Source: a virus. Taken from it: a stretch of 64,000 nt of DNA. This document shows positions 2,151 through 33,106 of the stretch, one piece after another. The notes below the pieces were generated by a model. That model made no database searches. It saw nothing but the letters and a program-made list of their open reading frames with translations, and was not told the origin of the DNA. The translations under genes were made by a program, and so were the position numbers. The number at the start of each line of letters is the position of its first letter. The first letter of the stretch is position 1. The stretch lies in the IMG/VR virus record IMGVR_UViG_3300045988_154277. One strand, 5' to 3'.

Positions 2151-4244
2151 TCAGAAATACTCCTTCAGCTTGCGAAAATCGAATGGTGTGAACTGCTGTG
2201 CTTTCGAAGCTTGTTGTTTCACTTGGTCAGCACTGATCAGGTTATCATCGACCAACTTATCGTCTACCAAAGACTCTAAGTGTCGCAGTTCACGTTCATA
2301 CGATGTCTTCACCATAGCGTTGGAAGTGCCCAAGATCAATCCTTTTAACTCTCCGATCCTCTCACGGATCTTAAGCTGTCTACTCTTCGCTTCTGGATCC
2401 ACATGCTCTCCTTCCAGGTTCACTCCTTTCAGGACTTCTCCTTTGGGGATCCCATACAAGTGGTGGTTCTTACCATAAAGAGCGAAGAAACACGTTAACA
2501 ACCAAGCGATCACCATATCGTCATGGGATCCGATCGGATGGTCAACACGTCCATTCCTCACAGTAAGTGATTTGATTTCACTTGCCAAATCAGCATCAAA
2601 CAACCGGTTTGCCATGTACTGAAGACTGGTGATCAATACACGCCCATAGAGGATATTACGACTATCCTGACTGCTGGTGGTGTTGAACCCGAAGTGCTTA
2701 CGTTTGGTTCCATCTCCGATGTCGATCTGACTGATATCCAAGAACCCATCGCTTCCATCTTGGAAATAGGTATTATAGATCCGATAGAACGGGTTGATCC
2801 TCTTCTTGATCATCATGTCGATCAGAAGATCGATCATGAACGCTCCGTTCTTATTACGTTCTGGGATCAGGATACTGTTCGGTAGCATATCCATCAACTC
2901 TGCGATACACGATGCGACATTTACCAAGTTAGTAACGTTACACTTACACGTTGCTACCACAGAGAGATCCAATGGATCAGAGATCACCAATGTAGTATTA
3001 TCACGTCCTACGTTGTCCGAAGTATCCAACCCGATCAGATAGTTCCTCTTGCGATTTTCATCATTCATCAGGATAGAACGTTTAACATACCAACGCACGA
3101 TCAACCCACCGTGTGTGGTGAACTCCGTAGGTTCGCAGATCGATGCGTTGAGGCGATTCAACAACTCGATAGGAACGATCGACTGTCCAGTACCCAACTG
3201 CCATTCGTTGAGATAGTCGACAGCCACCGTAATAGCATCTTTCCCATCGGACATCTCTTCCAACCACGCATCATCCTCTCCTAACTGTTTATAGGAGTAT
3301 TCGAGATACATCATCGTCTTGCCGCCCATCCCTCTCATCCACTCTCGAACAGCAGCAACGTCTTTAAGGTCATAAACACACTCGTTAAACCGTGCACTGT
3401 TGGACTTCAGATGGAACGCATAAGCGCCTGCTGGGTCGTTGAGCATACCTGCCGTTGTAGTGAGGATGTTCGCAGAGGGGATCCCTCGTTCGAATGCCAT
3501 CTTCCTAGCGGTAGCACACGCACCTGTGGCAGATGGATACGACTTATGGTTGTTCACATAGTACGCCATCTCATCCCACCATTGTGAAGACGTGGTCTCA
3601 CCACGTCCCTGTCTTGCAGCACGACGCATATCCTGCTGAGCAACGAAGGATTTAACAGCATTCTTCAATCTACGATAAGTAACGTCTTCCTGGTTCTTGG
3701 TGTCGTTCTTATAATCGACAAGGTACTCAGGAAGACTGTTACGGATCTCCTTGATACGTTTAATGTTCTCAGAACGAAGACTATCGTCCTTCGCGAAGAT
3801 CCCGATAGTGATGTTCTTAGCAGCTAAGAACTCCTCCCACGACAGGATACACACAACACCGATGGTCTTACCCTTCTGGCGAGGCATGGTTAAGAAGCTA
3901 TCGATGGAGTTCAAGAAACACCAGTTCAGAGCTAAGTTCGCTCTGGAGAACTGATAGTGGATCGGATCACCGCCAGGGGCAGGCACACGAATCACTTCTC
4001 TTAAGTAATACCAAGGGTTGACCTTACACTCATAAGCGATCCTCTGTCTTAGTTCTACAGAAGGATCCTTTAGATCGTAAGGGTCATATTTTTGGAGATC
4101 TGGTTGTGACAAGAACAAGAAGAACTTATTGTTCTTGATCCCCATATCCTTCAGGATACGATACATACGGAAACAAGAAGCATTCGTCGTGTTCGTATCC
4201 AAAATACCACTGTGAGTATTATAATCATCTAAGAATAGTAGCAT
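2151..4244 (-). CDS. terL: terminase large subunit (T4 gp17-like)
   Basis: Walker A segment MPRQKGKTIGVVCILSWEEF...PEYL parallels T4 gp17 SRQLGKTTVVAIFLAHF...PDFL; C-terminal nuclease-domain motif HPIGSHDDMVIAWL resembles gp17 EEGYHDDLVMSL. Confidence 0.9.
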   Translation of the reverse strand: MLLFLDDYNTHSGILDTNTTNASCFRMYRILKDMGIKNNKFFLFLSQPDLQKYDPYDLKDPSVELRQRIAYECKVNPWYYLREVIRVPAPGGDPIHYQFSRANLALNWCFLNSIDSFLTMPRQKGKTIGVVCILSWEEFLAAKNITIGIFAKDDSLRSENIKRIKEIRNSLPEYLVDYKNDTKNQEDVTYRRLKNAVKSFVAQQDMRRAARQGRGETTSSQWWDEMAYYVNNHKSYPSATGACATARKMAFERGIPSANILTTTAGMLNDPAGAYAFHLKSNSARFNECVYDLKDVAAVREWMRGMGGKTMMYLEYSYKQLGEDDAWLEEMSDGKDAITVAVDYLNEWQLGTGQSIVPIELLNRLNASICEPTEFTTHGGLIVRWYVKRSILMNDENRKRNYLIGLDTSDNVGRDNTTLVISDPLDLSVVATCKCNVTNLVNVASCIAELMDMLPNSILIPERNKNGAFMIDLLIDMMIKKRINPFYRIYNTYFQDGSDGFLDISQIDIGDGTKRKHFGFNTTSSQDSRNILYGRVLITSLQYMANRLFDADLASEIKSLTVRNGRVDHPIGSHDDMVIAWLLTCFFALYGKNHHLYGIPKGEVLKGVNLEGEHVDPEAKSRQLKIRERIGELKGLILGTSNAMVKTSYERELRHLESLVDDKLVDDNLISADQVKQQASKAQQFTPFDFRKLKEYF

Positions 4245-9021: not shown

Positions 9022-9068
9022 AGTTTCCTCCTGTGCTTTAAGTTTATGATGTAGAACTATAACAAAAA

Positions 9069-9104
9069 TATCAACAGAGGAGGCACCAACCTCCTCTGTT
9101 GATA
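9069..9104 (-). terminator. hairpin terminator downstream of the tRNA cluster
   Basis: atcaacagaggagg-cacca-acctcctctgttgat. Confidence 0.55.
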
Positions 9105-9117
9105 TAGATATAATAAA

Positions 9118-9197
9118 TGGTCCGTGTGGAGGGATTCGAACCCCCGACAACTCCTGCTCCCAAAGCAGGCGCGCTAACCAGACTACGCTACACACGG
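9118..9197 (-). tRNA. tRNA-Pro (anticodon UGG), CCA encoded
   Basis: manual cloverleaf: acceptor CCGTGTG/CACACGG; anticodon arm CCTGC-TTTGGGA-GCAGG; T-arm GGGGG-TTCGAAT-CCCTC; 3' ACCA. Confidence 0.8.
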
Positions 9198-9395: not shown

Positions 9396-9419
9396 CAGTT
9401 GTCTCCTGTATTCAAAGAT

Positions 9420-9490
9420 TAGTCCCACCAGGATTCGAACCTAGACTAAAAGATCCAAACTCTTCTGTGCTACCATTACACCATGAGACT
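9420..9490 (-). tRNA. tRNA-Gln (anticodon UUG)
   Basis: acceptor AGTCTCA/TGGGACT (one G-U pair); D-arm GGTG..CAC(C); anticodon arm GAAGA-GTTTGGA-TCTTT; T-arm CTAGG-TTCGAAT-CCTGG; an alternative fold would give Pro. Confidence 0.65.
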
Positions 9491-9506
9491 ACGAAGTTGT
9501 ATAGGG

Positions 9507-9639
9507 TGAATGTGGTAGGACTCGAACCTACACCAGTTTTCACTGACTTGTCATTCTCTGAGCTTGAGGTATATATCTCAGGATTCTCCAAGCGACCGAG
9601 GGACCAGCTCGGGACTCTAACCAGTTGAGTTACACATTC
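9507..9639 (-). tRNA. tRNA-like gene with a 62-nt insertion (canonical acceptor, D, anticodon arm with GGU [Thr?] and T arm)
   Basis: 5' GAATGTG..D-arm..CCGAG-CTGGTCC-CTCGG, then 62 extra nt, then GTAGG-TTCGAGT-CCTAC-CACATTC-A; the insert carries a GTATATAT promoter-like motif in the opposite orientation. Confidence 0.4.
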
Positions 9640-9640
9640 A

Positions 9641-10139
9641 TGGTGGAGGTGGCGGGTTATTCTCCCGCGTCTTACCTTACTTCAGATCAGTTTCGTTCAC
9701 AAGCTTAGTTTCGCTTATATTAGTCACACAGTCGATGTACGAAACTTGAGGAATCTCAGAGTGCTACTCTGTATCATTCTAACTGTACTGTGTCAAGTCA
9801 CTTCATGTGGGCGCTACTCCACTTCATGGATGCTCCCAGTAGTGTACCATCCTGGGCTACATCGACAACCAATCTGTGCGCATATTCTAACGATTCACGA
9901 TTGGTGAACCTCATTAGAACCCGAACCAAAGAAACGAGAGCGAATCATCGAGTCTTTGAAATTGCACTACTAGTCTCGTTATCGGAGTCCGAGACGTTCG
10001 TGGCCATCACGCAGCAGCGAGAAGGGCTTCTTCAGTGTTGTTGACACTTATTGTTTTGATCAGCTTTTATACAGGCCAACTGATCAACCTGTGCTTGCAA
10101 CTTAATCTTCCACAAAGCAATCGAAATAAAATCACCCCC
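9641..10139 (-). ncRNA. ssrA: tmRNA (ssrA-like), about 499 nt
   Basis: 5' GGGGGTGATTTTATTTCGATTGC versus E. coli GGGGCUGAUUCUGGAUUCGACGG; 3' GACGCGGGAGAATAACCCGCCACCTCCACCA versus E. coli GACGCGGGUUCAACUCCCGCCAGCUCCACCA; tag frame ...NNTEEALLAAA then TGA, starting about 90-95 nt from the 5' end. Confidence 0.75.
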
Positions 10140-10156
10140 GTGAAAAGAGGAACTGT

Positions 10157-10177
10157 GATCGGTGATGGGCACCGATC
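10157..10177 (-). terminator. hairpin immediately upstream of the tmRNA 5' end
   Basis: gatcggtg-atggg-caccgatc followed by a T-rich run on the minus strand. Confidence 0.45.
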
Positions 10178-10506
10178 TTCACCCGGACTTCGTCAACAGG
10201 TTGGGGCAGTTCCAAGCTCCCATCGAGGTGATATAGACACCTCTTACAACAGCGAACATAACTCACAAAGATCACCACTCCTCAGAGTGTTACGAGGAAT
10301 CGGGATTTACCGGGATCCGGACGATGTATTCAACTATCTGATCTTGAGAGAGGAATCAAACTCTTGATCAACTCATGGACTAACCCTGCATCTACAGTGC
10401 TCCGTTAGATCCATCATCGTTTACTTTGCATCGATTACCCTGTCACTCGCATCCTGTGTGTCCACTGGAGTATACATTAGGTAGACTCAGTAGATTATTA
10501 CTGAGA

Positions 10507-17039: not shown

Positions 17040-18600
17040 AAGATACTCTACTCTGGGAAGGATAACTTCCCAGAGTAGAGAGCCACAGAAAGGTATAAAT
17101 GAAAAGTCCTGGTTCCGTTTAGTAATGGAGTGACCGTATAGGCAGGCCCGAAAAGAGGCTATGTGATACGGTCAGTATCAGATCTCATTCACACGGTTTC
17201 CTTACGCTGAGCTGATACGTTTCTGGTGAACTACTCCTTACGGAGCTTCCTCGTATTACCGAGTACATCGACTTACGTCGATGGCCTGTTCCAGGCATTT
17301 ACGTGTGTTATTATCCCACCACATGTACGGATGGATATTGACTATAGATACAGGACCTTTGTACAATCCACTCGATTGTGCTCTTCCTAAGTGCAAGATG
17401 TTCAACGCAGCATTGATGTCTCGGTCTATCTCAAGACCACAATGTTCACATGTGAATGTTCTTACTTTTAGGGAGAGCTTCTCAGTGTGTTTTTCACCAC
17501 AGTACGCACAGGTCTGTGAAGTAAACATCGGATTCACAGGAACAAGATGATTTACCTTGTACTCTAGCATACTGATGAACTTACCAAGTTGTTGATTCCG
17601 TATCTCACGATTACGTCCAGTTGCTTTGGATTCAGACATCCTCTTAACCTTTAAGTCCTCTACGTACACTGTATCGTAACGACTGGACAGATCTTTAGAG
17701 ATCTTGTGAAGTTGGTCATTCGTTTTACGACTCTTCACTCTATACAGCTGTTTGATGACTTTAGTGAGATGTCTGTATCTATTTGATCTACGTTTGTGGT
17801 TGGTGTCCCTCCTTGCTTTTAGTTTATCTATTTGTTTATCATACCACTTCTGATGATTCGGTCCTCTGATCACTTGTTGATCAGATGTTGTTACCAAGTT
17901 AGCCGTTCCAAGATCGATACCCACATCAGTTGGCTGTCTAACTTTTACAGGGTTGTAATCTGTAGTGATGCTGACATACCAGTGATCTGAATAACAGATG
18001 GATATCATTTTAATAGCACCTTGGATAGGTCTATGTAGCACAATTGGTATTTCACCATATGCTTTGGTGATTAGCTTACGACCTCTAATCGAATATCCAT
18101 TTTGTGGATATGTGATGTTGAAGAAATTAGAACAACTTCTAAAACTAGGCGGATGGATCACTACCTTTTTGAAGAACGACTGGTATGAGTTATGTACTCT
18201 AATAGGTACTTGTTGTAACACTTGTGAGTGTATCTCGTACAACGTAGGATCCTGTCTCTTCAGTTCAACCAATTTAGAGTTGAGTCGATATTGGTTCAGA
18301 TACGATTTGTTGTTCGTATACTCAGTTTGTTCTGCTTGGATGAACTGGTTGTATATCCAGTTCAATCTGCAAGAGTGGTTCCATAGTTTCTTAACTTGCT
18401 GGTTAGAAGGTCGTATGCGAAACTTATAAGTTCGCATGTAATTACTCCAACCTTTGGTTGTTGATGTAGTTATGTAACGTATCTATGGATACGTTACATG
18501 CTGTTACTAGAAAATAAGACGGTTGATCTTAAGATACGTGATCCGTAGTCTACATCTCTCCAATATGTAGAATCTAGAGCATTAAGATCCTTGCTATAGC
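17040..18600 (-). mobile_element. IS200/IS605-family (IS1341-like, TnpB-only) insertion sequence
   Basis: tnpB ORF flanked by subterminal hairpins (left end 18474-18497 gtaacgtatc-tatg-gatacgttac; 18551-18575; right-end side 17046-17080) and about 200 nt of ORF-free structured sequence 3' of tnpB (candidate omega/reRNA). Confidence 0.6.
17256..18437 (-). CDS. tnpB: TnpB (OrfB) RuvC-like RNA-guided nuclease
   Basis: N-terminus MRTYKFRIRPSNQQ; RuvC-I VGIDLGTANLVTTSD; RuvC-II YVEDL; zinc finger CAYCG...CEHCG; RuvC-III DRDINAALNI. Confidence 0.85.
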   Translation of the reverse strand: MRTYKFRIRPSNQQVKKLWNHSCRLNWIYNQFIQAEQTEYTNNKSYLNQYRLNSKLVELKRQDPTLYEIHSQVLQQVPIRVHNSYQSFFKKVVIHPPSFRSCSNFFNITYPQNGYSIRGRKLITKAYGEIPIVLHRPIQGAIKMISICYSDHWYVSITTDYNPVKVRQPTDVGIDLGTANLVTTSDQQVIRGPNHQKWYDKQIDKLKARRDTNHKRRSNRYRHLTKVIKQLYRVKSRKTNDQLHKISKDLSSRYDTVYVEDLKVKRMSESKATGRNREIRNQQLGKFISMLEYKVNHLVPVNPMFTSQTCAYCGEKHTEKLSLKVRTFTCEHCGLEIDRDINAALNILHLGRAQSSGLYKGPVSIVNIHPYMWWDNNTRKCLEQAIDVSRCTR

Positions 18601-28982: not shown

Positions 28983-30134
28983 TTACGTTAAGAGACAGGT
29001 CAATCCCCTTACATAGTCCATGCCATATTTTCTGCACTCTTCTTTGCACTCTTCGATCAGAACATGCAACAGGTTGTAGATGTCCTCATCGAACTTTGCC
29101 AATGCAGCGTTGTGTTTCGCTACCGCTTGCGGTATCGTCAATCCCATCCGTTTGGTCATCAGATTGATCAATTCCAATTTCCAACAGACCACACCGATCA
29201 GGTATGGAAGATGGAGTTCATCCGCTTCATGTGGTTCGGTGATCGGTACGATCACACCTCGGAACGAACAATGGAGTCGTGCACCCATAACCAACTTACG
29301 GATATAACCGATCTTACTGATCAGTTTCACCTTGGAGATCAGAGTGCTGTATTCCACGATCGACCGTTGGATCTCCCACATCCGTTGATCCACGAACTTG
29401 GGACCAACTGTTCCATAGTTGAATACGTAGATCAGAGCGGACAACTCTGCTTTCGCATCCAAGATCGCTTCCACGGTATCATCACTGTATTGCATGGTAC
29501 CGGAGGTTGTGATCAGATGGAGAGCTTGGTTCAACACCGGAATATGTCGAATGAAGATCCTGTTGCGATAGCGCTGGATATATTCGGCGATCCCTTCTGA
29601 CCTAGCTCTTGCGGATGGTTGTTTTAACGGCGCATAATCGTTGAGGAAGAACCTTACGATGTCGTCGAAGTTATTGTAGAAATACTCAAACCCCTGACCG
29701 AGCAGTCCTTTCAACGGTTGCGGTAACTCAACATCGACATTGAGTAAGGACTCCAATATCGATACGGATTTGCACTTACCGAGCCACTTATCCAACACTC
29801 GATAGACTGCAGGATGGATGACACTTGGTGCAAAAGGAGGCAACTCCAACCAAGCACGGAACTTCACCTTATCGGCGAAGTAAGTACGAACAGGTGTATG
29901 ACACCTGCTACACACAGTGCCTTCATAGAAGTTACCTTCGAGATGTCCACACTCACAAGATGCGACGAAGTTCAGTTCCTTGACACCGTCCTGGAATAGG
30001 TTCTGGATCTGTTCTCTCATCTGACTCTTGGATGTGAACTGCTGATCACAAGGGATGACTTTCGCATCCGGATCCTCCCAGAACATCTTCTCGTAGTCTG
30101 TCGGGATCAACCGTACAAGTTTCCGTGTTGCCAC
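28983..30134 (-). CDS. multisubunit RNA polymerase beta' subunit, N-terminal fragment (split gene)
   Basis: zinc finger CECGH..C.RCHTPV like E. coli beta' [42 protein letters not shown] like [32 protein letters not shown] like [31 protein letters not shown]..ELHLP like GKRVDYSGRSVITVGP..RLHQCGLP; ends before NADFDGD; GTG start with AAGGAG RBS. Confidence 0.75.
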   Translation of the reverse strand: [383 protein letters not shown]

Positions 30135-30231
30135 CTTGTACTCCTTGTTATTGGGTTCCTGTGAAAAATAGAAGAGGATAGCCTGGATCTATCCTCCCCT
30201 ATAAGGTTACTGCTGTTTACTCTGATCGAGA

Positions 30232-31815
30232 TCAGAGGCAGTAGATGCTCTGCTGATTGGCGTACGGATACTGACCAACCATGACACGGTTCATCTGGGA
30301 GAACCCAGTGAAGTCGTTCGCCTGAGAAGTCATCAGAGGCGCAACGCTGTAGGTCGAGCTGGACGGAGTATCGTAGTTGAGCTTGACGCCCGCCTGATTC
30401 AGGATGGTCGCGATCGCGATCGCGAGTTTGCTGTCGAGGACCACGGTCGTGGTGGTGTAGAGATTCTCAACACCATCGGAGAAGATCCCCTTGACTTCGT
30501 TGATGTGTCCTTCCGGAAGGTTGGACTGACGCAGCAGAGGACGGATCTTGCTGAGGGCGTTCTGCATCTTCGGAGCCAGACGGAGGTAGTCCACCCAACG
30601 GGTGTCCTTGCCGATGCCGTTCTCCTGGTACACACCGGTGAAGTTCCGGCACATCCAGACAGCGACGTCACGTCCGAGGATCTCCGGACCGAACCCACCG
30701 TAGATGCCGTTGCCGAGGAACATCTGCAGAGACGCCACGAACTCAGCACGCTTGTCCTGATAGATCATGGCATCGATGCCGACCGGACGCGCACGTCCTT
30801 CGGTGATGTCGACCGCGAGGAACGGTTTGATCAGCGACTCGTTCACGAAGCGATGGAACTCGTCCACGCTGGTGATGTTGTAGGGCTGCTGAGTCTTCGG
30901 ATCCGTGTACAGGTTGCCGAGGTTCGGCTGATCCTTCTGAGCGAAGGAGGCGTACGGACGGCTCCACAGGGACTGCATGATGAACGCATCGGTCGCCACG
31001 GAGAGCGCCAGGGCCATCAGGTTCTGGTTCGGGATCTTGCAGATCACGTCGGTGATCACGGCAACCGGGATGAACTTACCCGCACCGGTATCTTCAGGAG
31101 AGAGGATACGGGTGTAGCCGGTGATCGCCATGAACGGCTGCTGATCGATTTCTGGCTGACCGAACCGGTTCGTGGTGCCGGTGGGCACGTCGATGCAGAG
31201 CAGGATGCCGATATCGTTCCGAGCCGGAACCGCATGCGGGCTGTTCTTGGAGGTCCAGTCATCGACCGCTTCTTTGCGGGTGATCACGGAGAACCGTTCG
31301 TTGCGGAGGGACTCGACGTTCAGGACGCTGCCACGAACGCAGGAGTTGATCGAGTTCATGATGAACGCGGCCATGTTGTCCGCCTTGGCATAGTCTTCTT
31401 TGCGAACCACGATGGACTGCAGAAGCTTCGCATCGCCGCGCATGTTCTTCAGCATGTTCGCGAAGTCACGGGACTGTTCGGAGATGCTGTTGCTGTCGAC
31501 AGCGCCATAGGTTTCAGCGAAGATCAGGTTGATCGCGAACTTCGACTGTTCGTCGATGAACGCACGCCCTTCCGCACGGGTCGTCGCGATCGGATAGGAA
31601 CTGATCGTGGACTTGAAGTCGACCAATTTCTTGTCGATCTTCTGGATGTAGAACTGACCTTCTTCGGACAGTCCGGTTGCCGATGCGGTTCCTTTCAGGA
31701 ACTCGCTCAGGCGGATGGCGTTCGGGATGGTGGTCTTCGGAGCGGCGTTGTCCATCGGCGAAGATCCGTTCATGTTGGTGTTGTTGGCTGTGGAGCCAGC
31801 GGTTTTCTGTGCCAT
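30232..31815 (-). CDS. abundantly expressed early protein with anomalously high GC; putative chimallin (phage-nucleus shell) or major virion protein
   Basis: AAGGAGGAATTACTATG RBS; promoter motif upstream; about 58% GC against 42% background; adjacent to the beta'-N gene, as chimallin is said to be in phiKZ (recollection, not checked); no sequence-level confirmation. Confidence 0.45.
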   Translation of the reverse strand: MAQKTAGSTANNTNMNGSSPMDNAAPKTTIPNAIRLSEFLKGTASATGLSEEGQFYIQKIDKKLVDFKSTISSYPIATTRAEGRAFIDEQSKFAINLIFAETYGAVDSNSISEQSRDFANMLKNMRGDAKLLQSIVVRKEDYAKADNMAAFIMNSINSCVRGSVLNVESLRNERFSVITRKEAVDDWTSKNSPHAVPARNDIGILLCIDVPTGTTNRFGQPEIDQQPFMAITGYTRILSPEDTGAGKFIPVAVITDVICKIPNQNLMALALSVATDAFIMQSLWSRPYASFAQKDQPNLGNLYTDPKTQQPYNITSVDEFHRFVNESLIKPFLAVDITEGRARPVGIDAMIYQDKRAEFVASLQMFLGNGIYGGFGPEILGRDVAVWMCRNFTGVYQENGIGKDTRWVDYLRLAPKMQNALSKIRPLLRQSNLPEGHINEVKGIFSDGVENLYTTTTVVLDSKLAIAIATILNQAGVKLNYDTPSSSTYSVAPLMTSQANDFTGFSQMNRVMVGQYPYANQQSIYCL

Positions 31816-31898
31816 AGTAATTCCTCCTTATGGCTGTTCTTGGGTTGTTAATGTTTTGTGCACAAATCATCACACGACCCACTCGTACGATGATTCTA

Positions 31899-31917
31899 TT
31901 TAGTTATATATAGGTGA
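31899..31917 (-). promoter_or_regulatory. promoter-like motif (sense: CACCTATATATAACTAAA)
   Basis: recurrent motif about 88 nt upstream of the ATG at 31815. Confidence 0.5.
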
Positions 31918-31924
31918 GACTCTG

Positions 31925-33106
31925 TTGAAGAAAATCCTACCCAGAGCATGCTATGTCAAACAGAAAAGGAATCTTCTCATGTTCAACATCATTTTGAAAT
32001 ATGCATCCGGACAGGCACAGACGATCAGCGAGTGGATGAGATACGTGAACACAGTCGAACTGAGAACCAGTATCTATAAAACTCGATTTTTAATGGGACC
32101 TTTTGTTTACAGTCCATTCGTCAATCTGTGCAAACAGATCTTACACGATGTAGCAGTGACTGATCTATTAAAAAATAGAAGTGATTACGCGAGGTATCAA
32201 CAGATCTACTATCTAATCGGATCTTACCGAGGGATGTTCGATCCTGTATACAACGTGAAATCATCTGGAGGTCTCTTCACCAAAGGTTCTACAGCTGATT
32301 ACGTTCTCAACGTGATGAGAACTTCTCCGATGCAATCTTTGCCATTGGATCGTTCTTGGGATCACTGGAAAGAACTGCAACCGACCAGGATCATCTACCA
32401 CGACTCTATGGAGTTGGTGACCGATCTCGGATCATTCAGTGTTGAGTTCAAGAAACATCCAGCATCTTGGATGACCTGTTCAATCGATCTGATCCTGCTG
32501 ATCTTCAAATATCTGAAGTTCGTGGAATACGGTAACAACACCGGAGATGATACCGATATCGAAACCTATCTTCAACGTTACGTAATCCCAGGATGGTTCG
32601 ATGATCTTCGCAACATCTGGCTGTTCAACGTATTGAACGCGATGATGTTCGATCAGTTCCGTAGGGAAGACGTTTACACAGATGGGACGATCGCTCCTTT
32701 ATCTGGATTACTCGGGGTTGCTCCTGATATCCACAGGATCCAAGCAGAAGCTCAACAGAAAACTCTGTTGTTCGGTGAAGTATTGGTAACCGAATGGTTC
32801 GGTCATACCAAGCCATTGCTCGCATGGATCCGTGAGATTCACGATGATCTCAGTGTACCAGATCTCAGGCAATATGCACATCTGAAGTTCCTGGAAGAGT
32901 TCCCGTATGTTGCATTCGTCATACGACTGAACAACATGATCCGTTCCAGGGAAAGTGCGAAGGTGAATCGAGAGCTCTATCAGCTCCTGAAACGCTACGA
33001 TGATAGTAATATCTATGCGAACCTTCCTCAACAGCAACTGAGAGACAAAATGTCGTATGAAGTAGGACATCTTCTGTCAGAGACGAAAGAATACCAATCC
33101 TACTAA
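31925..33106 (+). CDS. hypothetical protein (up to 393 aa; true start may be the ATG at 31979)
   Basis: long plus-strand ORF with protein-like composition; the ORF-track start is TTG. Confidence 0.55.
   Translation: MKKILPRACYVKQKRNLLMFNIILKYASGQAQTISEWMRYVNTVELRTSIYKTRFLMGPFVYSPFVNLCKQILHDVAVTDLLKNRSDYARYQQIYYLIGSYRGMFDPVYNVKSSGGLFTKGSTADYVLNVMRTSPMQSLPLDRSWDHWKELQPTRIIYHDSMELVTDLGSFSVEFKKHPASWMTCSIDLILLIFKYLKFVEYGNNTGDDTDIETYLQRYVIPGWFDDLRNIWLFNVLNAMMFDQFRREDVYTDGTIAPLSGLLGVAPDIHRIQAEAQQKTLLFGEVLVTEWFGHTKPLLAWIREIHDDLSVPDLRQYAHLKFLEEFPYVAFVIRLNNMIRSRESAKVNRELYQLLKRYDDSNIYANLPQQQLRDKMSYEVGHLLSETKEYQSY

Follow-up and report, generated by a model that had tools for sequence, protein, structure and literature searches.

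A putatively functional one-piece transfer-messenger RNA in the RNA gene cluster of a predicted phiKZ-like jumbo phage

Transfer-messenger RNA (tmRNA) genes are already known from phages, including Bxz1-like mycobacteriophages, huge phages from metagenomes and marine myophages; the tmRNA of Bacillus phage G, for example, is 308 nucleotides (nt) long and encodes the tag AKLNITNNELQVA, and ARAGORN detects a tmRNA in approximately 2.3% of phage genomes (PMC4131195, PMC12484599, PMC7162821, PMC9004378). A molecule that consists of the tRNA-like domain only strongly inhibits tmRNA, perhaps via titration of SmpB, and such a role has been proposed for the reduced RNA of mycobacteriophage DS6A (PMC4131195, PMC11915505). 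Intervening sequences known in tmRNA genes number 883, and all of them are group I introns situated in the TΨC-loop (PMC11915505). Here we analysed a 64,000-nt stretch of viral DNA (IMG/VR record IMGVR_UViG_3300045988_154277, hereafter the window), the minus strand of which carries a 499-nt tmRNA gene (ssrA) within a cluster of RNA genes. Our data show that the structural modules of tmRNA have been kept by compensatory evolution in eleven copies of this gene from a clade of phiKZ-like jumbo phages, and the sequence comparisons make it probable that the gene encodes a functional, phage-encoded, one-piece tmRNA.

The Rfam covariance model RF00023 covers the gene over the full length of the model (1-374); its score of 71.2 bits (gathering threshold 47; E = 1.1e-25) is far above chance expectation. 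The limits of this match are exactly those given by an original prediction made from the letters of the window alone, and the 5' end (GGGGGTGATTTTATTTCGATTGC, 10139-10117) and 3' end (GACGCGGGAGAATAACCCGCCACCTCCACCA, 9671-9641) named in that prediction are both present on the minus strand (tmRNA nucleotide N corresponds to window position 10140-N; Table 1). The ends stand in the standard order, the permuted two-piece model (RF04321) remaining below threshold with 19.1 bits against 47, and the intron form was excluded for the window copy, which has an uninterrupted 7-nt T-loop and no match to RF00028 within the gene. The 3' end had been called near-identical in architecture to that of E. coli, and this applies to the 5-bp T-stem, 7-nt loop, 7-bp acceptor stem and ACCA terminus but not to the T-loop itself, which reads AGAAUAA. 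The two ends do pair into an acceptor stem (GGGGGUG/CACCUCC with G3·U70), in which positions 4/69 and 5/68 covary.

With the bacterial one-piece tmRNAs, of which that of E. coli is the prototype, the window RNA shares an acceptor stem carrying G3·U70, A73 and CCA and a 5-bp T-stem closing a 7-nt loop. Further common features are the UUCGA of the D-region, helix P2, a pseudoknot (PK1) that stops approximately 10 nt short of the resume codon, the bases U and A at positions -5 and -4 relative to that codon, a short tag ending in alanines, a stop codon placed in P5 and a pseudoknot-rich 3' domain. It differs from these tmRNAs in length (499 nt versus approximately 360 nt; 363 nt in the E. coli prototype), in a 3' domain that has approximately 190 nt extra and could not be matched one-to-one with PK2-PK4, in an elbow with the T-loop AGAAUAA rather than UUCRANN and a D-region without GG, in its resume codon (GUC, valine), and in being encoded by a phage without an adjacent smpB. 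No bacterial tmRNA was similar to it past the generic 5' ~100 nt. Among 85 distinct environmental tmRNAs, which served as the baseline for length and T-loop, the median length was 360 nt and just one member was longer than 451 nt; in the RF00023 alignment the 3' domain of the window RNA contains insertions of 40 and 153 nt.

Like the known phage tmRNAs, the window RNA is complete, lies in a large phage among phage tRNA genes and is presumed to sustain or redirect ribosome rescue, whereas it has no blastn similarity to GenBank phages, is longer and belongs to a family that is invisible to ARAGORN and bears four swapped tRNA-like variants, two of them with non-canonical T-loops. With the DS6A RNA it shares a phage-encoded tmRNA tRNA-like domain and a possible titration of SmpB, but the DS6A RNA is without tag frame and pseudoknots, all of which the window RNA retains under compensatory evolution. 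The gene of one relative (locus L004) is interrupted, as are the intron-form tmRNA genes, while the window copy is not; the L004 insert lies in the D-region and is a miniature IS200/IS605-type element, in contrast to the group I introns of the TΨC-loop. New here are the large family invisible to ARAGORN, its modular tRNA-like domains and the non-canonical elbow of the window copy, phage tmRNAs themselves being known. The earlier interpretation is supported, yet it is less novel than was implied, since phage tmRNAs had already been documented.

A blastn search of the tmRNA against 50,697 GenBank phages gave no match, exact and relaxed 3'-end patterns in IMG/VR yielded one close relative only, and searches with single proteins led solely to the contig of that same relative. 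The PK1 core is identical in many unrelated environmental tmRNAs and was rejected as a family marker, having matched at least 135 contigs with only two true relatives among them. Two protein anchors, the large terminase subunit (TerL) and a deaminase-domain protein adjoining the cluster, were used to collect syntenic loci (designated by L numbers) from ENA, Logan and IMG/VR assemblies, in which homologues were located by nhmmer and confirmed by Rfam. This gave ten further copies in related phages, eleven with that of the window, the others scoring 56-86 bits against RF00023 at independently derived coordinates. At loci reached through TerL proteins of approximately 53% identity, the genes upstream of TerL are arranged differently and no tmRNA lies within 10 kb.

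Nine of the copies were aligned, and an explicit model with 121 pairs distributed over 19 helices was compared with controls in which the pairing partners had been slid by 1-3 columns. The modelled pairs were 96.7% canonical versus 36-42% in the slid controls, and 42 pairs were changed on both sides versus 3-7. An unbiased search over all column pairs regained the canonical tmRNA helices together with several helices of the 3' domain. The covariation among relatives provides support for the tmRNA identity that is independent of RF00023. All acceptor pairs are canonical across the nine copies, with G1-C72, G2-C71 and G3·U70 invariant and positions 4/69 and 5/68 alternating between GG/CC, CC/GG and CG/CG; A73 and G3·U70 are retained in every copy, whereas only nine of the eleven genes encode the CCA. 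P2 has been nearly all rewritten among the variants with its pairing retained (12 of the 25 pairs in P2a-d are changed on both sides, including 6/9 in P2a and 3/4 in P2c). Within PK1, the 5-bp P3 was compensated twice independently (from ACAGG/CCUGU to ACUGG/CCAGU and AGAGG/CCUCU), and P4, of 10 bp, is almost invariant. In P5 the pair G113-C137 is exchanged for A-U in L018. The 3' domain, which extends approximately 190 nt beyond the Rfam consensus, contains two H-type pseudoknots (nt 220-229/247-256 with 235-239/268-272, and nt 347-353/408-414 with 395-401/426-432), with both partners replaced in 2-3 pairs of each stem, together with at least six hairpins more, which are likewise backed by covariation.

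The resume codon follows the end of PK1 after 10 nt. The tag-like frame NNTEEALLAAA with its TGA, which had been placed 90-95 nt from the 5' end, is present and starts at tmRNA nt 95, the codons reading GTC AAC AAC ACT GAA GAA GCC CTT CTC GCT GCT GCG TGA (V-NNTEEALLAAA-stop). Its 12-codon length, C-terminal AAA and UGA stop are retained in all eleven copies, and the tags observed over the family are VNNTEEALLAAA, VNNTDEALLAAA, VNNTDEALPAAA, ANNTEETLLAAA, ANSIEEALPAAA and ANAFDEVLPAAA. The frame has no start codon. At nt 95-97, five copies have GUC and six have the usual resume codon GCG, which encodes alanine, and from this we take the resume position to be fixed. The A at -4 never varies; together with the U at -5 it agrees with the context in E. 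coli, whose A86 matters for setting the frame. The LAAA ending of the tag, earlier remarked on as departing from ALAA, is real and falls inside natural variation (for example, the Ruminococcus tmRNA tag ANDNYELAAA, fetched in this work).

Four tRNA-like domain variants are seated on one conserved core. Type B (the window, L001, L015, L016 and L004) has the T-loop AGAAUAA and a D-region without GG, and type C (L020 and L264) has the T-loop GGCRGUA, again with a GG-less D-region. Types A (L013, L014 and L018; T-loop UUCGAUU) and D (L154; UUCAACU) have canonical T-loops and a D-region with GG. Identity to the window was 99.5% in the core, 100% in the tRNA-like domain with P2 and 70.8% in the DNA of the neighbouring gene for L015; the corresponding values were 95.3%, 53.1% and 89.8% for L013, and 93.3%, 54.1% and 55.3% for L018. 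These values suggest that the core is either strongly constrained or spread by recombination, and that the tRNA-like module is swapped independently of it. The type-A tRNA-like domain resembles tmRNAs of gut Clostridia/Lachnospiraceae (GGGCUUGUACUGGUUUCGAC ... CAGGUCCACCA), with no likeness outside the domain. A host inference from the type-A 3' end was rejected, the pattern occurring across many phyla in tRNA-Ala genes as well as in tmRNAs.

A functional tmRNA is favoured by the identity of the PK1 core with that of many unrelated environmental tmRNAs and by cases such as L018, in which the tmRNA core is much better conserved than the adjacent gene (93.3% versus 55.3%). The RNA would be transcribed with the rest of the cluster as a single precursor, in which RNase P would cut at G1 of the tmRNA and also at the 5' end of the following tRNA-like gene, leaving a one-base 3' trailer to be trimmed by exonucleases. 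Host alanyl-tRNA synthetase (AlaRS) would add alanine via G3·U70, and host SmpB and EF-Tu would bring the charged RNA to ribosomes that, in the course of infection, have stalled on mRNAs that are broken or have no stop codon, the host's SmpB being proposed because none was found in the window. Translation would then resume at GUC, append Ala-VNNTEEALLAAA and free the ribosome at UGA, and the tagged fragment would be degraded by host proteases. The benefit to the phage may be that the host ribosome pool is kept available while mRNAs undergo degradation, and in this sense we infer, as did the original prediction, that the phage manipulates ribosome rescue.

Several observations weigh against a working tmRNA. 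ARAGORN, which had been proposed as a check, gives no call for the window gene or for any copy of the family, those with canonical T-loops included. The T-loop is UUCRANN in 82 of the 85 baseline tmRNAs (96%) versus AGAAUAA in the window, and the D-region of the window (AUUUUAUUUCGA) retains UUUCGA without the usual GG. No SmpB domain was found by Pfam in the 58 open reading frames (ORFs) scanned in the window; the window covers 64 kb, and most of the genome lies outside it, close relatives being found on contigs of 247-279 kb. L017 and L021 are without a tmRNA at the same site, the upstream structured RNA running directly into the tRNA-like gene, and the tmRNA gene is thus dispensable within the clade. 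The L013 copy is slightly degenerate, with a T-stem mismatch and no encoded CCA, and the L004 gene (ena:ERZ16268153:scaffold_7) is split after nt 12, in the D-region, by a 206-nt insert (1451-1656). Part of the core conservation may also stem from recent recombination rather than selection, as L015 illustrates (99.5% versus 70.8%).

With neither the UUC of the T-loop nor the GG of the D-region, the canonical elbow contacts are missing from the window RNA, which suggests that such contacts are dispensable or replaced in these phage tmRNAs. The canonical-T-loop variants do have GG in the D-region (UUCUGG, CCGGG). A pairing between UUAUU of the type B D-loop and AAUAA of the T-loop was considered and rejected, as it shows no covariation and L001 and L004 change one D-loop base uncompensated. 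Three otherwise unrelated tmRNAs on metagenome contigs (L161, L191 and L202), which encode proteins matching phage families, have the T-loops GGCAGUA/GGCAGUU and the GG-less D-regions AAUUAG, AAAUAG and AACAG. The recurrence of these loops argues for an alternative elbow over decay, and GGCAGUA/GGCAGUU may represent a recurrent alternative tmRNA elbow in phages.

The unusual elbow could also belong to a decoy, that is, a tmRNA-like fold that binds SmpB, AlaRS or EF-Tu, is a poor ribosome substrate and titrates rescue factors, thereby inhibiting trans-translation in the host. We regard this as unlikely. Besides the non-canonical T-loop and the GG-less D-region, the lack of a visible SmpB gene in the window and the precedent of the DS6A RNA, which has a tRNA-like domain only (PMC4131195, PMC11915505), are in its favour, but a decoy would have no need of PK1, the resume context, the 12-codon frame or the stop codon in a hairpin, all of which are conserved, PK1 and P5 even showing compensatory changes. 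Moreover, the sister types A and D bear the same core and tag with fully canonical T-loops, which gives the family as a whole the look of a working tmRNA.

The same atypical T-loop, taken together with the absence of the gene at the equivalent site in L017 and L021, the mini-IS605 interruption in L004 and the T-stem mismatch and missing CCA of L013, would fit a decaying, functionless relic, a host-captured gene that hitch-hikes in the phage RNA cluster on its way to being lost. It is improbable, however, that a relic would display 96.7% canonical cells and 42 compensated pairs, invariant alanine identity elements and tag frame, and a core 93% identical where the flanking gene is 55% identical; furthermore, bacterial tmRNAs are similar only in the generic 5' ~100 nt, so the gene is not a recent capture. 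A functional tmRNA remains the reading that we favour.

That the gene is not phage-encoded at all, being a chromosomal ssrA beside a prophage or a partial ssrA in an attP site, is effectively refuted: tmRNA genes are common integration sites of prophages and genomic islands (PMC11915505, PMC9004378), but this gene is full length with both ends present, lies approximately 5 kb from the terminase within a one-strand array of phage genes, recurs in the same synteny both on 247-279 kb contigs of jumbo phages and in IMG/VR, and has no integrase or bacterial housekeeping gene among the ORFs scanned. The long ORFs of the window are on the minus strand (for the overlap on both strands at 30001-32000, see below). 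PHROG and Pfam matches include TerL, a split multisubunit RNA polymerase beta subunit, PhiKZ-type virion structural proteins, a topoisomerase II with an HNH insertion, an NAD-dependent ligase and, weakly, the PhiKZ major capsid protein. TerL shares approximately 35% identity with its counterparts in jumbo phages of Erwinia, Pseudomonas and Vibrio, and closer metagenome relatives are found on contigs of 247-291 kb. Because of these phage genes, the likeness of TerL and the size of the related contigs, the window is assigned, on the strength of its gene content, to a phiKZ-like jumbo phage and not to a bacterial chromosome with a prophage beside ssrA. The prediction of a phage-encoded tmRNA gene next to a tRNA cluster is borne out both by the surrounding phage genes and by the map of the cluster.

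A broader reading, which we offer tentatively and with considerable doubt, is that the locus is a modular, mobile phage RNA cassette with a conserved core and interchangeable tRNA-like domains, in which phage tmRNAs have evolved an alternative elbow that current tools ignore. If this were true, the T-loop/D-loop elbow would have been replaced jointly in two of the four domain types (AGAAUAA and GGCRGUA, both GG-less), and the alternative elbow could suit other host SmpB or ribosome partners, or evade host factors that recognise tRNA-like T-loops. Two more members of the cassette, an undescribed structured RNA of ~330 nt and a tRNA-like RNA whose extra arm measures 62 nt, may act with the tmRNA. 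The family is, moreover, a natural experiment on what a tmRNA cannot do without: alanine identity elements, PK1, tag frame and core stay constant, and the tRNA-like elbow, near-invariant among bacteria, is exchanged or altered. Should the non-canonical copies be active, contact between T-loop and D-loop would be inessential for trans-translation, at least in the phage context, which would bear on how SmpB and the ribosome recognise tmRNA. Phage tmRNA catalogues depend almost entirely on ARAGORN; those based on it (PMC7162821, PMC9004378, PMC12484599) would miss this family, and surveys of translation genes in huge phages therefore undercount tmRNAs.

The practical gain is the annotation of a complete non-coding RNA operon of a jumbo phage (Table 1) and the clearing of two spurious ORFs (9790-10044 and 10035-10367). 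Both had been placed inside the tmRNA by the original prediction; that at 10035-10367 is only partly within it, its portion at 10140-10367 overlapping the separate structured RNA upstream.

Table 1. Positions in the window of the tmRNA gene, its parts, the adjoining RNA genes and the insertion element.
Feature	Position	Strand	Details	Evidence
tmRNA (ssrA)	9641..10139	minus	standard one-piece form, 499 nt	Rfam RF00023 and ten homologous copies
Acceptor stem, 5' strand	10133..10139	minus	GGGGGUG, nt 1-7, including G3 of G3·U70	pairs with 9645-9651
D-loop-equivalent region	10121..10132	minus	AUUUUAUUUCGA, nt 8-19	sequence read
P2 helix, 5' strand	10093..10120	minus	nt 20-47	pairs with 9672-9704
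Pseudoknot PK1	10056..10092	minus	nt 48-84; P3 48-52/65-69, P4 53-62/75-84	
Tag frame	10007..10045	minus	resume codon GUC 10045-10043, 12 codons VNNTEEALLAAA, UGA 10009-10007	kept in 11/11 copies
P5 hairpin enclosing the stop codon	10003..10027	minus	nt 113-137	100% canonical
Enlarged pseudoknot-rich 3' domain	9705..10002	minus	nt 138-435	covariation
P2 helix, 3' strand	9672..9704	minus	nt 436-468	covariation
T-arm	9652..9668	minus	nt 472-488, stem GCGGG/CCCGC	3/5 stem pairs covary across variants
T-loop, non-canonical	9657-9663	minus	AGAAUAA, 7 nt	sequence read
Acceptor stem, 3' strand	9641..9651	minus	CACCUCC, discriminator A and encoded CCA	sequence read, covariation
Conserved structured non-coding RNA	~10140..10500	minus	~330-370 nt, directly 5' of the tmRNA	RNAalifold
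tRNA-like gene	9507..9639	minus	133 nt, anticodon loop reading GGU	Rfam tRNA, 45.9 bits
tRNA-Pro(UGG), two genes	9419-9491 and 9118-9197	minus		ARAGORN and Rfam
Intrinsic terminator ending the RNA cluster	9068..9105	minus	17-bp stem, then UUUUUGUU	
IS200/IS605-family element	17226-18500	minus	393-amino acid ORF at 17256-18437	Pfam OrfB_IS605, Cas12f1-like TNB (TnpB)

In the direction of transcription the cluster consists of the structured RNA, the tmRNA, the tRNA-like gene, the two tRNA-Pro genes and the strong terminator. The structured RNA was found also in relatives without a tmRNA. Its alignment from nine phages gave 91 pairs in RNAalifold, 26 of them changed on both sides, and the invariant blocks GACAGGGUAAU, CCGGUAAAUCCCGAUUC, GGGAG.UUGGAACUGCCCC and GUUGAC..AGUCCGG lie between the covarying helices. 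No Rfam family matched it at E <= 10, and it is possibly a new RNA family. An identity as RNase P RNA, to which AAGUCCGG-like and GGUAAA-CCC-like motifs might point, gained no support, as no Rfam model of RNase P matched at E <= 10 and the order of the motifs is not the right one.

The tRNA-like gene begins 2 nt past the CCA of the tmRNA and has normal acceptor, D-, anticodon and T-arms, with C at position 37 and an insertion of approximately 62 nt within the variable region. This insertion is a covarying hairpin with the conserved loop AUAUAUACCYYAA, and the cloverleaf and the extra hairpin covary in six phages. Versions of this gene, of two sequence types, are present in most of the related loci and score 40-47 bits against the Rfam tRNA model; ARAGORN does not call the gene at 9507-9639. 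Between the deaminase-like gene and a small ORF upstream of the cluster, ARAGORN called a tRNA-Val(CAC) in L014 (7405-7476), L021 (7393-7463) and L004 (519-589), and at the equivalent site of L018 (7437-7510) a tRNA with the 4-base anticodon gcac; it called no equivalent of this tRNA-Val(CAC) in the window.

The L004 insert folds very stably (z = -5). Over the final ~85 nt, up to the exact right boundary (...GGAGTAGTTCAC), it agrees with the right ends of the TnpB/IS605 elements of the window and of L016, and because of this match the insert is classed, by sequence, as a miniature IS200/IS605-type element. Two other accounts of the L004 copy were rejected: the acceptor stem is not broken, the true 5' end sitting 206 nt upstream, and the insert is not a group I intron, having no match to RF00028 even at E <= 10. 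The conserved right end of the window element, at 17226-17300, is presumed to be its guide-RNA region, and the homologous element of L016 is inserted in a tRNA-Pro gene. A group I intron (RF00028, 51.6 bits) does occur elsewhere in L004, at 3915-4184 in its tRNA cluster, within an apparent tRNA-Leu(UAA) gene that has a long variable arm; its place there is that of the classical tRNA-Leu intron.

Another widespread phage tmRNA was encountered among the IMG/VR and metagenome contigs (L144, L145, L147-L149, L151-L153 and L205; for example, IMGVR_UViG_3300020531_000001, 138.7 kb). Its 5' end reads GGGCGCGUUCUGGUUUCGAC, its PK1 core is that of the window RNA, and its tag frame, which starts with ...GNRIVNAVRGIANR..., appears to be long. 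In the window itself, the G+C content rises to 0.545 at 30001-32000 versus approximately 0.45 elsewhere; the ORFs scanned there were without Pfam match, long ORFs overlap on both strands, and one of 393 amino acids runs along the plus strand at 31925-33106.

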